A stretch of DNA of 64,000 nt from an uncultured Draconibacterium sp. (GCA_964355945.1 CAYHGE010000001.1:48259-112258), one strand, 5' to 3'. Numbered from the stretch's first letter, positions 26,975-39,088 are shown. The notes: generated by a model from the sequence alone, not told the origin. A program made the numbers and translations.

Positions 26975-28165
26975 ATGCAAAACGACCCCTCAACTAAAAT
27001 CTACGACCTTCTTCAATTTGGCGAATATGGAGATGTAAATCCTTCAGTTTGCGATTCTGCTACCTTTACCTTTATGCAGGCCAAAACCATGCTTGACACC
27101 TTCCAGGGAGATTCTGAAGGGTGTTTCCTGTATTCGCGTCACTGGAACCCAAGCAATAAATATCTGGCCGATGCGCTCTCAGCCATGGAGGGAACCGAAT
27201 CATCATGGGTTACGGCCTCAGGAATGGCTGCCATTACCTGTTCCATCCTTCAGATTTGTAACAGTGGAGATCACATCGTTTGCAGCCTGACAACGTATGG
27301 CGGAACCTTTGCTTTCCTCTTTAACTACGTGAAAAAGTTTAACATCGATGTCACCTTTGTTGATATTACAAACCTCGACCTGGTTGAGCAGGCCATCCGC
27401 CCTAACACCAGGATAATTTATACAGAATCGATGACGAACCCTTTGCTGCAGATATCCGACATCCCTGCCCTGGCAAAGATAGCCAACGATCACAATATCA
27501 AGATGGTGGTTGATAATACCTTCACCCCAATGATCATTGCTCCGTTTCAGTTGGGTGCCCATGTGGTGGTTTACAGCATGACCAAGTTCATCAACGGGAA
27601 AAATGACTGTGTGGCAGGTGCAATCTGTGCTTCTGCGGAGTTCATCAATTCACTCAGCGATGTAAATGCCGGAACCGCCATGTTGCTTGGCCCGGCTTTA
27701 GACCCGCTTCGTTCATCCAGTATCCTGAAAAACATGCACACATTGCATATCCGTATGAAGCAGCACAGCAAAAATGCCATGTACCTTGCAGGAAAATTTA
27801 AAGAATATGGACTAAAGATCAACTATCCCGGCCTCCCTGAAAATAAGGGCCATAAAATCATGAAAACCATGATGAATCCTGAGTTCGGGTTTGGAGGACT
27901 GATCGCAATCGACATGGTAACCGCCGACCGGGCAGCAAAGCTGATGGAAATGATGGAGATTGCCGGTGTCGGATATCTGGCCGTTAGTCTTGGCTATTTC
28001 AAAACACTCTTCAGTAACTCCGGAAAGAGTACTTCCTCAGAAGTTCCTGAGGAGATTCAGCGGGAAATGGGATTGTCTGAAGGACTTGTCCGGTTTTCTG
28101 TTGGTTTGGATAATGATATTGAACATACCTGGCAAAAAATTAAAGGTTGCCTCGCCCAAATGTAA
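26975..28165 (+). CDS. Cys/Met metabolism PLP enzyme, methionine gamma-lyase-like (plant-type subfamily)
   Basis: FGEYGDVNPS, ATFT, YSRHWNP, YGGT, DNTFTP, SMTKFING, AVSLGY..TL, GLVRFSVG. Confidence 0.8.
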   Translation: MQNDPSTKIYDLLQFGEYGDVNPSVCDSATFTFMQAKTMLDTFQGDSEGCFLYSRHWNPSNKYLADALSAMEGTESSWVTASGMAAITCSILQICNSGDHIVCSLTTYGGTFAFLFNYVKKFNIDVTFVDITNLDLVEQAIRPNTRIIYTESMTNPLLQISDIPALAKIANDHNIKMVVDNTFTPMIIAPFQLGAHVVVYSMTKFINGKNDCVAGAICASAEFINSLSDVNAGTAMLLGPALDPLRSSSILKNMHTLHIRMKQHSKNAMYLAGKFKEYGLKINYPGLPENKGHKIMKTMMNPEFGFGGLIAIDMVTADRAAKLMEMMEIAGVGYLAVSLGYFKTLFSNSGKSTSSEVPEEIQREMGLSEGLVRFSVGLDNDIEHTWQKIKGCLAQM

Positions 28166-29167: not shown

Positions 29168-32026
29168 CTAACAGGAACATTGCAGGTTTCGATCCCCGAA
29201 GGCATCATCAATCCTTGTCACAGTCGGCCAGTATTTATCTTCCTTCAGTGAATCCACAGGGAATGCAGCTTTCTGCCGTGAATAGGGCAGGTTCCATTCA
29301 TCAGCAGACACCATCTGAGCGGTATGAGGCGCCTTCATGATGACATTGATGGCCTTGTCAGCCTGTCCGGAAGCGATCTCGTCAATTTCGCCCTTGATGG
29401 CAACCATTGCTTCCAGGAAGCGGTTCAGCTCTGAATAGGGTTCACTCTCGGTTGGCTCAACCATCAGGGTGCCGTGAACAGGAAAGGCCACGGTCGGGGC
29501 ATGGAAACCATAATCCATCAGGCGTTTGGCGATGTCGATGGCACCGATGCCTGTCTGGCGGCTGATGCCGTTGCAGTCAACGATCATTTCGTGGGCACAC
29601 CGGCCGTTCTTGCCTGAATACAGGATGGGATAATGCGGCTCCAGGCATGATTTTAAATAGTTTGCATTCAGGATAGCCATTTTTGTTGCTTCAGTCAGAC
29701 CTGCTCCGCCCATCAGTTTGATGTAGGCATACGAGATCGTTAGGACAAGTGCACTTCCATAAGGGGCTGATGCCACTGCAGAGATGCCTTCACTGCCTCC
29801 TGTTTCAACCACAACGTGTTTAGGCATGAACGGTGTAAGGTGCCGGGCAACGGCAATTGGTCCCTCACCGGGACCGCCGCCACCATGTGGAATCGCAAAT
29901 GTCTTATGAAGGTTGAGGTGGCAAACGTCGGCCTTGATAATTCCCGGATTTGTCAGCCCTACCTGAGCATTCATGTTCGCGCCATCCATGTAAACCTGTC
30001 CGCCGTTTTCATGAATGATGGCTATAATATCAAGGATCTCCTCTTCGAAAACCCCATGCGTGGATGGATAGGTAACCATCAGGGCAGAGAGTGTATCTTT
30101 GTACTGGATAGCCTTTTCACGGAGATCTGACACATCAATGTTCCCCTTCTCATCGCATTTGACAACTACAACCTTCATGCCTGCCATCGCAGCACTTGCT
30201 GGATTGGTGCCATGTGCAGAGGACGGGATGATGCAAACATCCCTGTGTCCATCCCCCCTGGCAATATGGTACTGACGGATAACCATCAAACCTGCATATT
30301 CTCCGGCAGCACCTGAATTTGGCATGAAGGAAACTGAATCAAACCCTGTGATTGTTGCGAGGTCTTTGGCAAGTTCTGAGATCAGGAACTGGTATCCTTC
30401 GGCCTGGTCTTTCGGCACAAACGGATGTATTCCGCCGAATTCCGGGTAGCTGAGCGCAAACAATTCCGATGCTGCATTGAGTTTCATGGTGCAGGAACCC
30501 AGAGGGATCATCGAACGGTTCAATGCCAGATCCTTGATTTCAAGCTTTTTGATATATCGCATCATCTCCGTTTCGGAATGATAACTGTTAAAAACTTTAT
30601 GTTCAAGGTACCCTGATGTTCTGGTAAGTTGCTGGGGAATAGTTGTAATCAGTTCACATTCCTGAGGATTGCAAACAAATTCGGTATATGTCTTCCCATT
30701 GGCCTTTGCAAAAATTCCGACGAGGATGTTGATGTCGGAAAGCGAGGTGGTTTCATCGATGCTGACGCCCACATGACGTTCATCGATGTAGCGAAGGTTA
30801 AATTTATTCTCCAATGAAGCTTTTTTAATGACCTCCATTGCAACACCTTCCGGTAGCTGGATTCTAACGGTGTCAAAGAAAAAATCGTTTAACTGGGCAT
30901 AGCCATATTTTTTCACCTCCTGGGCAAGCACCCCTGTGAGGATATTAATATGGCGGGCAATCTGGCGTAGTCCTTTCGGGCCGTGATAAACTGTATACAT
31001 TCCTGCCATAACTGCCAGTAAAACCTGGGATGTGCAGATGTTGGAGGTCGCTTTTTCCCGTTTGATGTGCTGTTCCCGGGTTTGAAGTGCCATCCGCAGT
31101 GCACGGTTTCCATTTGCATCAACGGAAACCCCGATGATACGGCCTGGCATCTGTCGCTTGTACTCATCCCGTGTGGCAAAATAGGCGGCATGCGGACCAC
31201 CATAGCCCATCGGAATACCAAAACGCTGGGTGGAACCAAAAACAACATCAGCACCCCATTCTCCCGGAGGGGTGAGCAGGGTAAGACTGAGCAGGTCAGC
31301 TGCAACAGCTACCATCGCCCCAGCGGCGTGTGCTTTTTCAACGATGCCGGAGAAATCACAAACCGAACCATGCTGATTTGGGTACTGTAAAACACAGCCG
31401 AACATTAATTCGTTAAATTCGATATCCTGCTGTTTGTCAACAATGAGTTCAATGCCCAGGGGGATGGCCCGCGTTCTGATTACATCGATCGATTGCGGGA
31501 AAAGGTTTTTAGAAACGAAGAACTGGTTGGCGCCGCGTTTAACAGCGTCTCTTGAACGACTGTTGAAAAGCATGATCATGGCTTCAGAAGCTGCGGTACC
31601 TTCATCAAGCAAAGATGCATTTGCAATGGGCATTGCAGTGAGGTCGCATACCATTGTCTGAAAATTCAGCAAGGCCTCAAGTCTTCCCTGGGATATTTCT
31701 GCCTGGTAAGGAGTATAAGCAGTGTACCATCCCGGGTTTTCCAGGATATTTCTTAAAATAACGGCGGGAACAATGGTGTCGTAATACCCCATGCCGATAA
31801 AGCTTTTGTAAAGTTTGTTTTTTGCACCGATTGACCGGATGTGGGTCAGGTACTGATGCTCATTCATCCCGGTTGGAAGGTCGAGGGGTGCCTTCATCCG
31901 GATTGAGGATGGAACAGTTTGATCTATAAGCTGATCAATAGAGGCAACTCCAATTTTTTCAAGCATGAGGTTGATTTCATCGCCGAAAGGTCCGTTGTGT
32001 CGTCTTGCAAAGTTATTGTTGATCAT
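29168..32026 (-). CDS. gcvP: Glycine dehydrogenase (decarboxylating), P protein
   Basis: [70 protein letters not shown]. Start set to ATG 32026, just downstream of a promoter motif. Confidence 0.98.
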
Positions 32027-32058
32027 GTGGAAGTTTTTTTGAGATTTTGAATGCAGCG

Positions 32059-32066
32059 CAAAAGTA
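32059..32066 (-). promoter_or_regulatory. -7 promoter element (TACTTTTG) for gcvP
   Basis: TAnnTTTG match 32 nt before the ATG. Confidence 0.55.
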
Positions 32067-32099
32067 CCAAAAGTTTGTGAAATGATAAACAATTAAAAC

Positions 32100-32130
32100 A
32101 CCCTGACGGGGTCCATAACCCTGTCAGGGT
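32100..32130. repeat. REP-like palindrome ACCCTGACGGGGT-N5-ACCCTGTCAGGGT
   Basis: 13-bp stem with one mismatch (G.U in RNA); separate from the adjacent terminator. Confidence 0.6.
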
Positions 32131-32135
32131 CCATG

Positions 32136-32168
32136 AAAAAACGCCGCCCCTGCAAGGAACGGCGTTTT
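32136..32168 (-). terminator. Rho-independent terminator of the PKD/T9SS gene
   Basis: Minus strand AAAACGCCG-N13-CGGCGTTTTTT, 21 nt after the stop at 32190. Confidence 0.8.
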
Positions 32169-32189
32169 CAAAATGATTACTGAACAGAT

Positions 32190-34424
32190 CTATTTTGTCT
32201 TAACAAGTTTGGTGGTTAAAATCACACCGTTTTGGGTGAAAATCCGCAAGGTGTAGATGCCATCAGGCAGAGAGGCTACGCTCACTTTAACAGTGTTATT
32301 GCCTGCTGTAAGAGTTATCTGACTGCTCTCAACCAGTTGCCCTGTAAGATTATAAACTGAAATTCCGGCTTTAGTTCCTTGTTTCATGTCAATGTTTACC
32401 GTCAGATTGTCAATAACAGGATTCGGGTAAGCAATCCACTGGTTTGCAAGAGTGACCTCATCCCGGGTTCCCTGAATGGTATTCCCGCTGAAGGTCATCA
32501 CCACATCGATGTGAGGATTTTCCGGTGTAAGTATGATCTTAACCATGTCACTTGTAACACCGGGCATTTCAGCATGCAGGAAATAGGTTCCGTAGGCAAG
32601 GGTTGGAAAACTGAAGGCACCGGCACCGGTAACCCGGGTAAAACCAATTGCATTGCCCTGCTCATTCAGCAGGATCATATTGATCTTATCCATCATCGAG
32701 CTGTACATATCACCCAGGTTGATCTGGCCATTGGTTGACCCCGGGCCGGGAGTCATCTGGTCAGATGGAACAAGGCTAATGTTGTAAGGATTGTTTTCTG
32801 CTCCCAGGTTTATAAGTGTCGCTTGCTCCCAGCTGATGGTGTTGCCGTAATAGGTTGGCAGATATCCGTTTGAATCAAAGGGAATCGCCATGATGTAATA
32901 GTTGCCGTCAGGGACCAGTGTGAAATAGTAAACCCCGTTTGAATCTATCGGGCATACCGCAACAAATGGCTGGTAGTTAGCATTTGTGTCAACAGAGAAG
33001 ATCATCGCCATTCCGAGTGGAAGAGGGAAATTGCCTTCAAATACCTGTCCGTAAATCTGATGATAATTGACACTGTCCTGGATGACAACAATCTGACAGA
33101 AAGTACTTGTACAGTTATTCCCTGCGATGGTGAGGCATACATTATATGAACCGGGTGACGTGTAATTGTGAATTGGGTTTTGCATTGTTCCTGATGTGCC
33201 GTCACCAAAACTCCATAACCATGATGTCGGATTTCCGGTGGAAAGGTCAGTAAAGGAAACCGTGCTATACCCGGAGGCGGGAGCAGTGGCATACGAGAAA
33301 TAGGCCTGGCAACCACCGCCTGAGCCAACGGTAACCGTATCTGAAGTAACATCATAGCATGTTTGGTTCGGGCTTCCGATGGTAAGGGTCACCTGGTAGT
33401 AGCCACTTGTTGCATAGGTATGTACAGGATTCTGCTCAAAAGAGGAGTTGCCGTCTCCGAAATTCCAGTTCCAGGATGCGATATTACCGGTCGACAGGTC
33501 GATGAAGTGAAGGGTGTTGCCTGAATTCAGCGAATCACCATAATAGGTAAAGGCCGCATGACAGGCAGGTGGTCCACCAACTGCAAGGGTGTCGCAGGTC
33601 ATGTCGTAGCAGGTGCTGTCTGCTCCCTGGATGGTCAGGCAGACCCCGTAGATGCCTGATTGAGCATAGGTGTGTATGGGATTTTGCAGATTGGAGGTCA
33701 TTCCATCACCGAAATTCCATGTCCAGGAAACAATATTTCCTGCTGACTGATCGATGAAATGATAGGTGTTAAGTGTGTTTGAGCTGTCAGGAACTATGGT
33801 AAATGCAGCCTGACAATCACCGCCATTGATGGAATCCCAGGCATAAACTGTTTGGGTAATGGTGTTGTAGCATGTCGTTCCAAGTGCCCCTATGGTAAGA
33901 GACACGTCATAATAACCAGCCTGAGTGTACGTATGAACCGGATTTATCGAATTCGAATAGGTTCCGTCGCCAAATGACCATTGGCGGATATCGAATCCTC
34001 CCACTGAGAAGTCATAGAAATTAAAAACAAGAGGCTGCTGCTGTTGGCTTGTGAATGCAGCCTGACAGGGATTGTTATTATAACAGATTGCAAATATAGC
34101 TGTAAAGCTGGTATTGGCCGGGCTATAAACGAATGATTGTATGTTAAGATAATTCTGACAATCAACAGTCCCAACATATAGATTTCCCTGGGTTCCGCCA
34201 TTTTGAATGATGATTGTATCAGAGTAAAAACCGCTGTTGTTGGTATAAACAGTGTGATAAAAATACCATCCTGCATTAGAATCGTTGTGTATGATTACGG
34301 CCTGATTTGGTATCGGATTGCCGTTAGACAGGTCCGTAACTGTTCCGTTGACAAGCAAAAATCCTTGAGACATGGCTGGAATCACCAGCAGCAGAAACAA
34401 AATCGGAAGAAGTAGTTTTTTCAT
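32190..34424 (-). CDS. Secreted PKD-repeat protein with T9SS type A sorting domain
   Basis: Signal peptide; four C.A.F...F.D.S...W.FGDG....NP.H.Y...G.Y.V.LTI repeats; carboxypeptidase-regulatory-like beta domains; YPNP...GIYTL...KLVK. No catalytic domain recognised. Confidence 0.9.
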   Translation of the reverse strand: MKKLLLPILFLLLVIPAMSQGFLLVNGTVTDLSNGNPIPNQAVIIHNDSNAGWYFYHTVYTNNSGFYSDTIIIQNGGTQGNLYVGTVDCQNYLNIQSFVYSPANTSFTAIFAICYNNNPCQAAFTSQQQQPLVFNFYDFSVGGFDIRQWSFGDGTYSNSINPVHTYTQAGYYDVSLTIGALGTTCYNTITQTVYAWDSINGGDCQAAFTIVPDSSNTLNTYHFIDQSAGNIVSWTWNFGDGMTSNLQNPIHTYAQSGIYGVCLTIQGADSTCYDMTCDTLAVGGPPACHAAFTYYGDSLNSGNTLHFIDLSTGNIASWNWNFGDGNSSFEQNPVHTYATSGYYQVTLTIGSPNQTCYDVTSDTVTVGSGGGCQAYFSYATAPASGYSTVSFTDLSTGNPTSWLWSFGDGTSGTMQNPIHNYTSPGSYNVCLTIAGNNCTSTFCQIVVIQDSVNYHQIYGQVFEGNFPLPLGMAMIFSVDTNANYQPFVAVCPIDSNGVYYFTLVPDGNYYIMAIPFDSNGYLPTYYGNTISWEQATLINLGAENNPYNISLVPSDQMTPGPGSTNGQINLGDMYSSMMDKINMILLNEQGNAIGFTRVTGAGAFSFPTLAYGTYFLHAEMPGVTSDMVKIILTPENPHIDVVMTFSGNTIQGTRDEVTLANQWIAYPNPVIDNLTVNIDMKQGTKAGISVYNLTGQLVESSQITLTAGNNTVKVSVASLPDGIYTLRIFTQNGVILTTKLVKTK

Positions 34425-34502
34425 GGTAAATTTGTTTTAATGGTTTGTGTATTTATTGAGTTGTGATTTTTTAAGAACCTGGTTCCGGAGGTTTATGATG
34501 TT

Positions 34503-34530
34503 ATAACCCGACAGAAGAAAAAGGTTGCCT
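34503..34530 (-). promoter_or_regulatory. Putative ECF sigma promoter AGGCAACCTTT-N12-GTTAT upstream of the PKD gene
   Basis: Identical 11-nt -35 block and 5-nt -10 block, with the same spacing as the motif at 36573-36600. Confidence 0.7.
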
Positions 34531-34549
34531 GTGCCCCGGGACCTTTATT

Positions 34550-35977
34550 TCAAAAATGGATGACAAAAGCTGCGCGAACCCCTGCAGACCATGGTTTAGT
34601 ATTGTTAACCGGTTTTTCGTAAACAGAATTAAAATAGTACCTGACATTTGGCTCGAGTTCAAAAAACAACGCCTCCGACAATTTAAAAGCGGTGTTGATG
34701 CCTCCCATTACCTGCCAGTTCAGGCTTACCTGCTCCGGGGCAATGTCATTCACACTGATAATGCGTTTTGTCCCGGGATCATATTCGTCAGAGAGTTGCT
34801 TTGAAACCAGCAGGACTGACAACACCGGTCCCACCCTGAACCCCATTGAAATCCGCTCTGTTTGCCAGAAATCATATCCTATGATCATTGGGATCTGAAG
34901 GTACGTGTAGCGTTTTACCACTTTGGCATAATCGAGTTTCATCAGGCTGTCCCATACATCCTTTTTTGACAGGTACATACTCGGTACGTAACTATGTGTT
35001 GGATCATCCCATTTGAAATTCATGGAATCCAGGTGGTTATAGGCACCCAGGAAATCATTGTACTCCACCACAACTTCATTGGTCCCTTTGCCAATTGACA
35101 CCCCTGCACCGGTACGTATTGAAAATTTCCCGAAATGAAATGTTCCCTCAACTCCGAAATTGTTCACAAATTTTGTGCCTTCCAGGGTGTTAAACATCCA
35201 CTCAGGAGTGTAATAAACGCCAATGGCAGGGATCCATTTACTGCTGTTTCCGGCTGCTTCGGAAGATTTATTTTTAATCGCTGGAGCAGGAATTTGGACA
35301 GAGTCGCTTGTTTGTGGCAAGGTTGAATCAGGAGCAGACACATCAGGCATTATCACAGAGGCAGGTAAGTTGATCTCTGCTTCCATTGTGCTATCGGGTT
35401 TTTTAACATCGTTCCCCGGAGTTGAAACATTGCCTGGATTTGCAACGGCAAGCCCCCCCCCAGAAATTGCTGACAAAGAAGATGATTTTGTCATCTCATT
35501 TTTCTTATCGGGCATTATCGGATTGGCTGACGGCTTTTGTTTTTCTGAGTTTTTCCCAAAGGCAGGGACTGGGTTCGAAAACTGCGTTGACTCACCTGTA
35601 ACAGGCTGTTGGTTTGATATGGGTACAGAAGAATTAAGGGTCTTGTTTTGTTTGGAGATACCAGTGGATTGGGTTTGGTTTAATGGGTGATGCGTATTCA
35701 GCCCTGCTGAATGAACTTGCCTGGTAGCAGGAGTTACTTTCTTACCGGCATTTGAAGAGAACTTTTCTGAAGTGATGGCCCATATCAATAATCCTGCACT
35801 GATAAGAACAAAAATACCAGAGAGCAGGATCAGGCCTGTTCTTCCCTTCTTCTCAGGTTGCGAAATCTGCATCGCATCCTGCAGGAAAGCCTTTTTGGCT
35901 GCCTCAGAGGGCTTCATCTGATGATCTTTCAGGGTCTCCCTGAAGAGATCATCGATCGGATGATTATACTTTTTCAT
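34550..35977 (-). CDS. Putative dual-membrane-spanning anti-sigma factor: N-terminal cytoplasmic segment, TM helix, disordered linker, C-terminal PorT-like beta-barrel
   Basis: aa1-47 IDDLFRETL..H..KPS; TM aa48-68; S/T/P/N/Q/K-rich linker of about 175 aa; amphipathic strands (YTYLQIP, GFRVGP, ELEPNVRYY); terminal Phe. Overlaps the ECF sigma stop by 14 bp. Confidence 0.75.
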   Translation of the reverse strand: MKKYNHPIDDLFRETLKDHQMKPSEAAKKAFLQDAMQISQPEKKGRTGLILLSGIFVLISAGLLIWAITSEKFSSNAGKKVTPATRQVHSAGLNTHHPLNQTQSTGISKQNKTLNSSVPISNQQPVTGESTQFSNPVPAFGKNSEKQKPSANPIMPDKKNEMTKSSSLSAISGGGLAVANPGNVSTPGNDVKKPDSTMEAEINLPASVIMPDVSAPDSTLPQTSDSVQIPAPAIKNKSSEAAGNSSKWIPAIGVYYTPEWMFNTLEGTKFVNNFGVEGTFHFGKFSIRTGAGVSIGKGTNEVVVEYNDFLGAYNHLDSMNFKWDDPTHSYVPSMYLSKKDVWDSLMKLDYAKVVKRYTYLQIPMIIGYDFWQTERISMGFRVGPVLSVLLVSKQLSDEYDPGTKRIISVNDIAPEQVSLNWQVMGGINTAFKLSEALFFELEPNVRYYFNSVYEKPVNNTKPWSAGVRAAFVIHF

Positions 35978-36548
35978 AGGTCGGTGATGGTTTAATGTTG
36001 ACCAGCTGATCCATTTTTTTTCTTAATAAAGCGCGGGCTTTTGAAAGCTGCGATTTGGATGTGTTTTCTGAGCATAAGAGCATTTCGGCAATCTCCTTGT
36101 GCCCGTATTGTTCAAAAACGAAGAGGTTGAAAACGGTCCGGTACCCGGCCGGCAGTTCACAGATCAACTGCATAATCTGCTCCTTGTCGATATTAAGATA
36201 TACCTCTTCCGGATCTGCCTCTTCTTCGTTGTGAAGATCGATTTTATCCAGGATCGGGTCAATGTCAATGAAATATTTCTCTTTCTGGCGGCTGCGTAAA
36301 AAGTTCAACGCAGTATTGACCATGATCCTTCTCATCCAGGCTTCCAGGCTTCCATCGGAACGGATTCTGAACGTGTGGATTTTCTGGATGATTTTAATAA
36401 ACCCGTCGTGAAGAATGTCTTCCGCATCATTCCTGTTCCCTGAATAGCGGAAACAGACGCTCAACATTGAAGGTGCATGGCTGTCATACAACGCTTCAAT
36501 GGCGCCTGCATCCCTGGTTATCGCTTTTTTTATAAGATGTTCCTCCAC
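35964..36548 (-). CDS. ECF (sigma-70 group 4) RNA polymerase sigma factor
   Basis: DAEDILHDGFIKI, W.RRI.VNTALN (region 2); LPAGYRTVFNL...GHKEIA......NTSKSQLSKAR (region 4); GTG start. Confidence 0.95.
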   Translation of the reverse strand: MEEHLIKKAITRDAGAIEALYDSHAPSMLSVCFRYSGNRNDAEDILHDGFIKIIQKIHTFRIRSDGSLEAWMRRIMVNTALNFLRSRQKEKYFIDIDPILDKIDLHNEEEADPEEVYLNIDKEQIMQLICELPAGYRTVFNLFVFEQYGHKEIAEMLLCSENTSKSQLSKARALLRKKMDQLVNIKPSPTYEKV

Positions 36549-36572
36549 GGGTTTACTCTATCCTGCATAAAG

Positions 36573-36600
36573 ATAACACAACACTATCCAAAGGTTGCCT
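36573..36600 (-). promoter_or_regulatory. Putative autoregulatory ECF promoter AGGCAACCTTT-N12-GTTAT
   Basis: Lies between the hppA terminator and the sigma start; duplicated at 34503-34530. Confidence 0.7.
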
Positions 36601-36610
36601 TAAAAATATG

Positions 36611-36652
36611 AAAAAAAGAGGCTGCCAGAAATATTCCGACAGCCTCTATTTT
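36611..36652 (-). terminator. Rho-independent terminator of hppA
   Basis: Minus strand AGAGGCTGTCGGAA..TTCTGGCAGCCTCT followed by a T-run. Confidence 0.8.
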
Positions 36653-36667
36653 GCAAGTAGTTGAAAG

Positions 36668-39088
36668 TTAATCTTTAATACGCATTTTGTAAAATGAACG
36701 GTAAACAAAATATAAAGCAACCGCAAAAAATGCCATTCCGATATAATGGGCGAATGGCCTGAAGTGAACGGACAGGGCTATTTCCATAGCCAGCAATCCA
36801 AACAGGGTGGTGAATTTAATAATGGGATTCATAGCAACGGATGAAGTATCTTTAAAAGGATCACCTACTGTATCGCCCACAACGGATGCAGCATGGAGAT
36901 CAGTGCCTTTTTCCTTCATATCCACTTCAATCACCTTTTTTGCATTGTCCCACGCACCGCCCGCATTGGCCATGAAAATTGCCTGGTACAAACCAAAGAA
37001 TGCAATGGAAATCAGGTAACTTACGAAAAGCGAAACCGGTAAAGCGTAGTTTAGTTTTTCAGCACCGGTCATCGATTCAGTCAAACCGGTAGGAGAGGAT
37101 AAAAATGCAAAGGCCAGCGCAAAAGAGAAAATGGCGATGAAGATATTCAACATCCCTTTTTGGGCATAAACCGTGCAAATTTTTACAACTTCTTTCGATT
37201 TGGCTGTATCTGCTTTTTTCGGGGCATTCGGATCGAGGTTGATGTTTTCCTTGATATAGGCTACTGCCCGGCTTGCACCTGTTGTTACCGCCTGAATTGA
37301 AGCTCCGCTAAACCAGTAGATTACCGCTCCACCTAAAAGGAATCCTAAAATTGTATATGGATTAAGGAGGTTAAGGATCTGTTCAGGTTCGATACCCAGC
37401 GATTTTTTAATAACCAGGATCAGTGAAAAAATCATCGTGGTGGCACCTACAACTGCGGTGCCAATCAACACCGGTTTGGCAGTGGCTTTAAAGGTGTTTC
37501 CTGCACCATCATTGGCCTCAAGATAATGTTTGGATTTTGCGAAATCAGGTTTAAAACCAAAATCGCGTTCAATTTCAGCGGAAATACCGGGAATTTCTTC
37601 AATCAGCGAAAGCTCATAAATGGATTGGGCATTGTCGGTTACAGGGCCATAGCTGTCAACCGCAATGGTAACAGGACCCATGCCCAGCATACCAAAAGCC
37701 ACAAGGCCGAAGGCAAAGATCGATGGATAGATCATCACATTGCTGAGTCCGAAATTGCTTGCATAATAGGCAACAAACATAAGCAGGAAAAAGACCATTC
37801 CCTGCCAGAAAGCGCTGAAATTTCCGGCAACAAGCCCGGAAAGGATGTTGAGAGAAGCGCCGCCTTCCTGTGATGCAACCACAACTTCGTTCACATGCGT
37901 CGATTTCGGACTGGTGAAAAGTTTTGTAAACTCAGGGATCAGGGCGGCTCCTAATGTTCCTGCACTGATGATTACTGACAAAGTTATCCATAAATCATTC
38001 GCCAGGTCGCCTATGGTCAGGTAACTGATCACAAATGTTACAACGATAGAAAGGATTGAGGTTATCCATACCAGTGAGGTCAGAGGTTTCTCAAAATCAA
38101 GGTCGTCAGCATTGCTGTACTTGGCTTTGCTGATGGCTCCATTGATCCAGAAAGCCACGATGGAGGTGATGATCATGAAAATTCTCATTACGAAGATCCA
38201 GGTGAGCAACTGAACCTGAAGTACAGGGTCGGCAACTGCGAGAACGATGAAAGAAATCAATGCAACGCCGGTTACACCATAAGTTTCAAAACCGTCAGCC
38301 GTCGGGCCAACACTGTCGCCGGCATTATCGCCAACACAGTCGGCAATGGTTCCCGGATTTCTGGGGTCATCTTCACCGATTTTAAAGATCACCTTCATCA
38401 GGTCAGATCCAATGTCGGCAATTTTGGTAAAAATACCTCCCGCAATTCTCAACGCGGAAGCGCCCAGCGATTCGCCAATTGCAAATCCGATAAAGCTTGC
38501 ACCTGCATATTCTCCTGGAACAAACATCAGGATGACCAGCATCATAATCAGTTCCAGGGAGATAAGGACAACACCGATACTCATTCCTGCATTCAGCGGG
38601 ATATTGAGCAACTTGATAGGTTTCCTTTCCAGAGAAGCAAATGCCATCCGGGCATTGGCGAGCGTATTCATCCTGATTCCAAACCATGCAACGCTGTATG
38701 AACCAAGGATGCCAATAATGGTCCATCCCAGGATCATTAAAACACCACCGATTCCAAAACTGGCATCCGAGAGCCATCCGAAATAAAATGCCACGGCAGA
38801 ACCGATAAAAACAAAAAGAATTACTAAAAATTTCCCCTGCTGAATGAGATAGGTTTTTGAGGTTTCAAAAATCACTTGTGCAACATCCAGCATGGACTTA
38901 TGTGCACCGATTTTTTTTACTTTAAGAAATTGGTACAACCCGAACATAAAACCTGCCAGTGTGATCAAAAATCCCCAGTAAAGGATAGATTGATTTCGTA
39001 TATCTGCAGGAATTACAAGGTTTGCCTCGCCAGCCATTGTCAGAAATGGCAATAGCAAAGCCGTGAAAAAGGTAATGGCTCTTTTCAT
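36668..39088 (-). CDS. hppA: Membrane-bound cation-translocating pyrophosphatase (long, divergent type)
   Basis: GGIFTKIADIGSDL, EDDPRNP..IADCVGDNAGD, DSYGPVTDNA, GNTFKA, GGAWDNAKK, GDTVGDPFKDT; 806 aa. Confidence 0.95.
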   Translation of the reverse strand: MKRAITFFTALLLPFLTMAGEANLVIPADIRNQSILYWGFLITLAGFMFGLYQFLKVKKIGAHKSMLDVAQVIFETSKTYLIQQGKFLVILFVFIGSAVAFYFGWLSDASFGIGGVLMILGWTIIGILGSYSVAWFGIRMNTLANARMAFASLERKPIKLLNIPLNAGMSIGVVLISLELIMMLVILMFVPGEYAGASFIGFAIGESLGASALRIAGGIFTKIADIGSDLMKVIFKIGEDDPRNPGTIADCVGDNAGDSVGPTADGFETYGVTGVALISFIVLAVADPVLQVQLLTWIFVMRIFMIITSIVAFWINGAISKAKYSNADDLDFEKPLTSLVWITSILSIVVTFVISYLTIGDLANDLWITLSVIISAGTLGAALIPEFTKLFTSPKSTHVNEVVVASQEGGASLNILSGLVAGNFSAFWQGMVFFLLMFVAYYASNFGLSNVMIYPSIFAFGLVAFGMLGMGPVTIAVDSYGPVTDNAQSIYELSLIEEIPGISAEIERDFGFKPDFAKSKHYLEANDGAGNTFKATAKPVLIGTAVVGATTMIFSLILVIKKSLGIEPEQILNLLNPYTILGFLLGGAVIYWFSGASIQAVTTGASRAVAYIKENINLDPNAPKKADTAKSKEVVKICTVYAQKGMLNIFIAIFSFALAFAFLSSPTGLTESMTGAEKLNYALPVSLFVSYLISIAFFGLYQAIFMANAGGAWDNAKKVIEVDMKEKGTDLHAASVVGDTVGDPFKDTSSVAMNPIIKFTTLFGLLAMEIALSVHFRPFAHYIGMAFFAVALYFVYRSFYKMRIKD

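Follow-up and report, generated by a model that had tools for sequence, protein, structure and literature searches.

A conserved ECF sigma factor module with a predicted two-membrane anti-sigma factor and a duplicated putative promoter in front of the gene for a predicted type IX-secreted PKD protein in an uncultured Draconibacterium

What does an extracytoplasmic function (ECF) sigma factor control when its operon is followed by the gene of a secreted surface protein, and how is such a sigma factor held back? The question is raised by a locus in a 64,000 nt stretch of DNA (the window) from an uncultured Draconibacterium sp., a lake Bacteroidales bacterium with a 3.7-Mb genome assembly that is 89% complete. 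Three co-directional genes on the minus strand lie here between two strong terminators (Table 1), and they encode an ECF sigma factor, a putative anti-sigma factor, and a protein with PKD domains predicted to be a type IX secretion system (T9SS) cargo. A preliminary description of the window, made from its sequence, had already reported this trio, the two bracketing terminators and a 14-bp overlap between the sigma gene and the middle gene. Our open reading frame calls place the genes in the same positions, the sigma stop and the anti-sigma start overlap by 14 nt (35964-35977), and both hairpins were found and folded, by far more stable than shuffled sequence. We consider it probable that the trio is a conserved module, in which the sigma factor is held by a two-membrane anti-sigma factor of the type of Dma1 from Bacteroides thetaiotaomicron, and in which one promoter, present in two copies, lets the released sigma factor transcribe both its own operon and the PKD gene.

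The two leaders of the module share a 10-mer, GGCAACCTTT, followed by 12 unspecified positions and GTTAT, which gives GGCAAC as the -35 element, a spacer of 16 nt and GTTAT as the -10 element. AAC-N16-GT is the layout of ECF promoters. The exact motif of 15 specified bases occurs twice in the window, as compared to an expected 0.17 occurrences for up to two mismatches, and the two sites are the only exact matches in the whole genome. A third site in the window (28125-28151, minus strand) has one mismatch and was taken as chance, it lies at the end of a plus-strand open reading frame (26975-28165) and has no gene downstream of it. Genome matches with one mismatch on contigs C2 and C66 were rejected, both being inside genes.

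The motif is also found in relatives of the module. We collected 80 related loci, every one of them out of a metagenome-assembled genome, and searched them with the looser pattern [GA]CAAC-N15-17-[GA]TT, counting sigma leaders where at least 120 nt of upstream sequence was at hand and intergenic regions of at least 45 nt. The pattern is present upstream of the sigma gene in 66/73 loci and between the anti-sigma and PKD genes in 62/64, and in each of the two sets 65 of the 67 sites have the 16-nt spacing. Another 13 loci have shorter gaps between the anti-sigma and cargo genes. Eight of these, all distant, have a gap of 3-12 nt, and the cargo gene there continues the sigma operon. The remaining five have a gap of 27-38 nt in which the motif is visible in every case, and the cargo start codon has probably been called too early.

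A position weight matrix (PWM) built from 127 sites (27 bits) was used to scan the genome, and all hits above 14 bits were examined. After the two sites of the module the next-best one scores 19.8 bits, and all 10 other hits lie inside long open frames. This includes a hit on contig C23 that is 16 nt before a called start codon and is really about 250 nt inside an 847-aa gene. The scan gave no other site in the genome that is intergenic or of comparable strength. Since nothing comparable was found outside long open frames, the predicted regulon in this genome is the module itself, that is, its own operon and one T9SS surface protein. The module had been called self-contained, with the PKD protein as its apparent output. 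The first holds for the predicted regulon, and the second gains direct cis-regulatory support, the promoter motif of the sigma gene being repeated before the PKD gene and conserved in relatives.

The middle protein was modelled with AlphaFold from a 40-sequence alignment. The model has helices at residues 9-15 and 25-36, a long helix of 27 residues at 46-72 and eight long strands between 249 and 474, and the last residue of the protein is a Phe. In the alignment, a conserved N-terminus is followed by a hydrophobic segment and then by a low-complexity stretch that varies, and the C-terminal 230 residues are well conserved. This is the layout that had been read from the sequence, with a transmembrane helix at 48-68 and a linker of about 175 residues; the model places the helix at 46-72 and disorder at 75-243. 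The C-terminal domain had been expected to fold as a barrel, and in the fold search its best Foldseek matches were the OmpA transmembrane domain, NspA, Ail, OmpX and OmpW, all of them eight-stranded barrels (E 4e-7 to 1e-4, TM-score by target about 0.63). The Pfam family OMP_b-brl_2 (PF13568) matches the protein with 25.9 bits against a cut-off of 27, or 27.6 bits when the neighbouring in-frame matches are counted in, and the NCBIfam search gave no family for it.

In the model, the connections between strands 1-2, 2-3, 4-5 and 6-7 are 2-4 residues long, and three long loops (305-350, 395-418 and 449-462) are located on the face opposite to the linker entry, which is predicted to be the cell-surface side. 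The mean column identity of these loops is 0.71, 0.72 and 0.79, as compared to 0.63-0.80 in the strands and 0.21 in the linker. Outward loops that are as conserved as the strands are unusual among outer-membrane proteins. Because of this, a specific surface ligand seems more likely as the signal than non-specific damage, as far as the model can tell. The preliminary description had singled out a long insert in the barrel, GTNEVVV...LDYAKVVK, as a possible surface sensor. It corresponds to strand 3 and the loop between strands 3 and 4 (305-350), and it is indeed present, predicted to face outwards, and conserved, which fits a sensor role; it is, however, a feature of the whole family and not peculiar to this protein.

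Table 1. Positions of the genes, control elements and protein parts of the module, counted from the first nucleotide of the window
Feature	Position	Strand	Details
ECF sigma factor gene	35964-36548	-	194 aa, GTG start; Sigma70_r2, Sigma70_r4_2 (Pfam)
Anti-sigma (middle) gene	34550-35977	-	475 aa
PKD gene, predicted T9SS cargo	32190-34424	-	744 aa
ECF-type promoter predicted for the sigma/anti-sigma operon	36573-36599	-	22 nt before the sigma start codon; PWM 31.5 bits
Second copy of the promoter motif, before the PKD gene	34503-34529	-	78 nt before the PKD start codon; PWM 34.2 bits, best site of the genome
Palindrome AACCTCCGGAACCAGGTT (CCGGAACCAGGTTC) within the 5' leader predicted for the PKD mRNA	34475-34493	-	paired cells 71.6% vs 62.9% in shuffles
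Anti-sigma residues 1-45, two short helices, presumed cytoplasmic sigma-binding part	35843-35977	-	mean column identity 0.61
Anti-sigma residues 46-72, single predicted transmembrane helix	35762-35842	-	KKGR before the helix; AlphaFold confidence (pLDDT) about 80
Anti-sigma residues 73-243, low-complexity linker, predicted disordered	35249-35761	-	pLDDT <50 over 75-243; column identity 0.21
Anti-sigma residues 244-475 and stop, predicted eight-stranded outer-membrane-type beta-barrel, C-terminal Phe	34550-35248	-	AlphaFold, Foldseek, marginal Pfam match
Upstream intrinsic terminator	36617-36647	-	14-bp stem, T7 tail; -24.8 kcal/mol, z -6.8
Intrinsic terminator after the PKD gene	about 32137-32169	-	15-bp stem, U6 tail; -24.3 kcal/mol, z -3.8

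Dma1 has been described as having helices at its N-terminus, then a disordered linker and, as its last part, a barrel of eight strands that is annotated OMP_b-brl_2, and its spanning of both membranes was examined by fractionation of the doubly tagged protein (PMC10927553). How near the protein of the window stands to such factors can be judged from its relatives. A search of 5.8 billion proteins gave 315 relatives, nearly all of them 420-510 aa, full-length and from uncultured Bacteroidales or Bacteroidota, and a profile search of 1.84 billion cluster representatives gave 270 at E<=1e-30 and 646 at E<=1e-10. The full-length family has two members in the source genome and was not found in 400 other sampled Bacteroidota genomes, 11 of which have weak matches confined to the N-terminal part of the family profile. 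Six of these 11 places were inspected, and in all six the gene directly follows an ECF sigma gene. At two of the six the product, of 516 aa in one case and 547 aa in the other, has an OMP_b-brl_2 match at its C-terminal end and no PKD neighbour, and at two more the products, of 470 and 440 aa, have neither a Pfam match nor an informative neighbour. The other two are variants in other Bacteroidia families. In one (L105, G175:C3:433000-441000) there are two adjoining genes, one for the anti-sigma part, of 263 aa, and one for an OMP_b-brl_2 barrel of 348 aa. In the other (L102, G083:C1:886500-895500) the gene after the ECF sigma gene encodes a 592-aa anti-sigma-like protein without a Pfam match, and the next gene a protein that has both CarboxypepD_reg and a T9SS sorting domain.

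The 516-aa protein aligns with the family barrel at an hhalign probability of 96.5%, and the sigma factor of this Dma-like pair from another family is 37% identical to that of the window. Matches to anti-sigma genes from other Bacteroidia families are limited to residues 1-45. The proposed Dma/Reo-type layout is thus upheld by the structure and the fold search, by the marginal OMP_b-brl_2 match, and by homology of the N-terminus and the barrel to ECF-linked anti-sigma proteins in other Bacteroidia families. Judged from these sequences, the anti-sigma protein is a lineage-restricted branch of a wider set of ECF-linked, barrel-ended anti-sigma factors, because the full-length family is missing from the sampled genomes. 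A further protein of the source genome (L099, contig C4, 654-8234) is a separate observation. It has 450 aa, a sub-threshold OMP_b-brl_2 match and no adjoining sigma gene. On one side of it is a C25 (gingipain-like) peptidase that also carries PKD domains and a T9SS sorting domain, and on the other a protein of 813 aa whose TssR-like match is weak.

The third gene encodes a signal peptide, a CarboxypepD_reg-like domain, four PKD domains, two further beta-sandwich domains and a sorting domain. Its AlphaFold model (mean pLDDT 78.7) is all-beta after the signal helix 5-18. The sorting domain is a Por_Secre_tail at residues 666-740 (PF18962 49.4 bits, TIGR04183 45.2 bits), which makes it type A, and the NCBIfam model for type C sorting domains stays below its cut-off. 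The Pfam and NCBIfam searches gave no catalytic family, and the protein agrees in this, in its four PKD stretches and in its Por_Secre_tail with the catalytically silent T9SS protein of the preliminary description. The genome encodes SprA (2580 bits), and it contains at least 150 matches to the type A sorting domain. T9SS cargo genes are accordingly common in the genome, and only the cargo gene of the module carries this promoter. The predicted T9SS secretome as such is unusually large.

NigD is the hallmark of the known Dma1 and Reo regulons (PMC10927553, PMC13114119), and a link to NigD-like lipoproteins had been part of the comparison from which the analysis started. This link does not apply here, as no NigD_N (PF12667) match was found in the 89%-complete genome, in a search that did match a Bacteroides thetaiotaomicron control. 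Neither does any of the three proteins match the TonB-dependent receptor or FecR families of Pfam and NCBIfam. For the sigma protein, the sigma70-ECF superfamily was the sole NCBIfam model above cut-off.

The order of the trio is kept in the relatives, as the synteny survey that had been proposed shows. A PKD/T9SS homologue follows the anti-sigma gene in 77/80 loci, and in the three exceptions (L023, L028 and L071) the contig stops at most about 260 nt past the anti-sigma gene. In one locus (L059) the cargo gene is 1.5 kb downstream, and eight loci have a second PKD-like gene further downstream. The sigma gene precedes the anti-sigma gene in 76/80, the four exceptions beginning inside the anti-sigma gene. 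Six assemblies give two loci each. The genome of the window has itself a second, divergent trio of overlapping genes on contig C14, with identities of 43% for the sigma factor, 23% for the anti-sigma factor (E 6e-29) and 31% for the cargo (E 7e-84). The leader of this trio has GGCAAC, 16 nt and CGTC instead of GTTAT, a single observation; the variant could separate two regulatory channels.

Pairwise distances are correlated between barrel and cargo core (r 0.79) and between sigma factor and barrel (r 0.81), and in the four two-locus assemblies that could be tested the barrel and the cargo mostly have the same nearest relative in another genome. For these two reasons the trios are, on sequence evidence, duplicated and inherited as units. 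A correlation of distances is what co-inheritance would be expected to give, and by itself it is no proof of binding.

The locus is represented in RNA libraries of its habitat. Lake-water metatranscriptome contigs from two studies contain pieces of the cargo and sigma genes with 100% identity, and in one of the libraries the anti-sigma gene is represented too, by pieces of which one spans its junction with the sigma gene. Stretches that these contigs leave uncovered, for example 34410-34991 and 31694-32081, were given no interpretation.

If the parts work as in Dma1/Das1 and Reo/EcfO, residues 1-45 of the anti-sigma protein would bind the sigma factor in the cytoplasm and hold it at the inner membrane, the linker would cross the periplasm, and the outer membrane would hold the barrel. 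When a disturbance is sensed in that membrane or at it, proteolysis of the anti-sigma factor would follow and set the sigma factor free. The freed sigma factor would transcribe its own operon and the cargo gene, and the cargo, once brought out by the T9SS, would be fixed to the cell surface as other type A cargo is.

Several points weigh against this reading. The promoters were called from the duplication and conservation of a motif and not from mapped transcription starts, the incomplete genome may miss target sites, and the sigma factor may use sites weaker than the PWM cut-off. The Pfam match of the barrel is marginal, and the loop 305-350 is modelled at low confidence (pLDDT 41-50). Both the binding of the sigma factor by residues 1-45 and the location of the barrel in the outer membrane are taken over by analogy. 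The likeness to Dma1 and Reo is one of architecture and published descriptions, and the lineage restriction of the family makes a transfer of function from the Bacteroides systems a long extrapolation. As for the RNA, assembled contigs cannot show starts, strands or levels, and RNA libraries may contain DNA.

It is conceivable, if unlikely, that the same switch has the PKD protein as its input as well as its output. The exported cargo, or its sorting domain while in transit, would then bind the barrel loops or the periplasmic part of the anti-sigma factor, and the module would measure the display or secretion of its own cargo, closing a feedback loop. There is a precedent in Porphyromonas gingivalis, where the sorting domain of PorA has been described to bind PorY (PMC12152298). 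What makes a feedback attractive here is that the outward loops are conserved like strands, that the predicted regulon has no member outside the module, and that every divergent barrel copy keeps its own cargo gene. Correlated distances and kept adjacency are, however, seen in any co-inherited operon, and for the published Dma and Reo systems the text available treats the NigD gene beside the pair as an output and gives no evidence of a ligand role (PMC10927553, PMC13114119). Very tentatively, each module may be a cargo-specific checkpoint of surface display, in which the barrel loops bind the module's own PKD protein, the anti-sigma factor signals across the two membranes whether this one protein is in place, and the sigma factor adjusts the synthesis of the protein. 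Under such a scheme, paralogous trios would work as channels that do not interfere with one another, every one having a cargo and a promoter variant of its own.

The remaining explanations deny the switch one of its parts. That the PKD gene is a mere conserved neighbour, the motif serving another regulator or sigma factor and the sigma factor of the window controlling genes elsewhere, could be argued from the use of motifs in place of mapped starts, from the incomplete genome, and from a -10 element, GTTAT, that differs from the CGT-type -10 of many ECF promoters. We find it improbable, given that the motif has the AAC-N16-GTT layout of ECF promoters and precedes the sigma gene itself, as in autoregulated ECF operons, that its spacing is nearly invariant in both sets of sites, that the cargo gene is fused to the operon in eight distant loci, and that the genome scan gave no other intergenic site. 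It is highly improbable that the middle protein is no anti-sigma factor at all and instead an outer-membrane anchor or export helper for the PKD cargo, with an incidental N-terminal membrane segment. Cargo genes beside dedicated outer-membrane barrels are indeed known for type B sorting domains and PorP-like proteins (PMC9143113), but the cargo of the window has a type A sorting domain and the barrel resembles the eight-stranded OmpA/OmpX type. The conserved N-terminal 45 residues are moreover common to proteins after ECF sigma genes in other families, and the start codon of the gene overlaps the sigma stop codon. The sigma factor with a two-membrane anti-sigma factor, having the PKD protein as its output, is the reading that we retain.

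The surroundings of the three genes show some further features. The upstream terminator ends an H+-pyrophosphatase-like gene and shields the module from transcription coming from that gene. The terminator after the PKD gene was absent from the output of a consensus terminator scan of the window. Between it and the glycine dehydrogenase start, at 32100-32135, a palindromic unit of 15 nt, GGACCCYGWCAGGGT, stands twice in direct succession. With one mismatch allowed, its pattern is matched 64 times in the genome, as compared to 2 for a reversed control, and the copies are often arrayed with an 18-nt period, so that it resembles a dispersed intergenic repeat of the repetitive extragenic palindrome (REP) kind. 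An Rfam search over 31900-36800 gave only two sub-threshold matches, which were taken as chance.

The palindrome in the cargo leader is weak as an RNA hairpin (-3.3 kcal/mol, z -0.3), with modest covariation. It follows the -10 element of the cargo promoter at a constant distance, and its symmetry is kept while the sequence changes, the variants GGAAACAGTTTC, GCTTCCGGAAGC and TCATTGCAATGA being found at the same position in related loci (for example L006, L011, L016, L017, L058 and L066). Because the RNA hairpin is weak, the palindrome could instead be an operator or a structure of the 5' end. Short tandem repeats of 7-8 nt, such as GGGTGAAC/GGGTAAAC, GACGAATGAC and CAATGCAAA/CAATGCAGG, are found directly upstream of the sigma promoter or within the cargo leader of other trios. 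They occur in the C14 trio of the same genome (L098, 6960-7130) and in the leaders of L007, L009, L010, L015, L017, L019, L020, L024, L058 and L066, and the trio in the window has none of them.

The anti-sigma type has already been published, as the Dma family, in 2024; a constant pairing of this type with a secreted protein seems not to have been published. By title or abstract we found no description of an ECF sigma/anti-sigma/T9SS-PKD trio in the literature. The text available of the Dma papers PMC10927553 and PMC13088901 has no mention of T9SS, type IX or PKD, and nothing on ECF21 context or T9SS links was found in the main text available of the ECF re-classification paper PMC7826278. What is new here is the promoter duplication, the genome-wide prediction of the regulon, the family-wide counts, the conservation of the loops and the absence of NigD. 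The known outputs of Dma-type switches, the NigD lipoproteins, have no assigned function. The branch described here offers a simpler case, with a predicted regulon of one operon and one secreted protein, a clear promoter for a reporter, and conserved loops that point to a specific ligand. Should it be true that the cargo feeds back on the barrel, this would be the first known case of an anti-sigma factor that reads directly, across both membranes, what state a secreted protein is in.

Among known systems, the FecA/FecR/FecI and SusC-like/anti-sigma/ECF trios also connect a component of the outer membrane with an ECF sigma factor. The module has in common with them that it consists of three genes, is expanded as paralogues and has a regulated gene beside the sigma/anti-sigma pair. 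It differs in having no TonB-dependent transducer, in an anti-sigma factor that is itself predicted to reach the outer membrane, and in a third protein that is a secreted beta-sandwich. In the PorA/PorXY/SigP pathway of P. gingivalis (PMC12152298) a T9SS cargo is tied to an ECF sigma pathway, as it is here, and PorA gives an example of a sorting domain that also acts as a regulatory ligand. The sensor there is, however, a two-component system, the targets are T9SS machinery genes, and the pathway is described with neither a dual-membrane anti-sigma factor nor a cargo gene in the sigma operon (PMC12152298).

The closest likeness is to the Bacteroides systems. In B. thetaiotaomicron the pairs Dma1/Das1 (BT_4721/BT_4720) and Dma2/Das2 have been described, with the gene of a surface protein adjoining the pair in the regulon, there NigD2 (BT_4719) (PMC10927553, PMC13088901). 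In Reo/EcfO of Bacteroides fragilis and Phocaeicola vulgatus the anti-sigma factor has been described as reaching from the cytoplasm to the cell surface and proposed as a sensor of stress in the outer membrane; the operon regulates itself, and its regulon is limited to a few surface proteins, including one whose gene adjoins the pair (PMC10927553, PMC13114119). That regulon is made up of three nigD paralogues, and its inducers are oxygen, antibacterial toxins and the gut environment (PMC10927553, PMC13114119). Here the host is instead an uncultured freshwater bacterium with a very large T9SS secretome, the output is a T9SS-secreted PKD protein and not a NigD lipoprotein, the predicted regulon is confined to the module, and the barrel has long conserved loops. 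The secreted beta-sandwich protein would stand where gut Bacteroides, which are not known to have a T9SS, have their NigD surface lipoproteins. A general rule is suggested by this, that each switch of the Dma type governs dedicated surface proteins, whose route of delivery would be lipoprotein export in gut Bacteroides and the T9SS wherever a lineage has this system.

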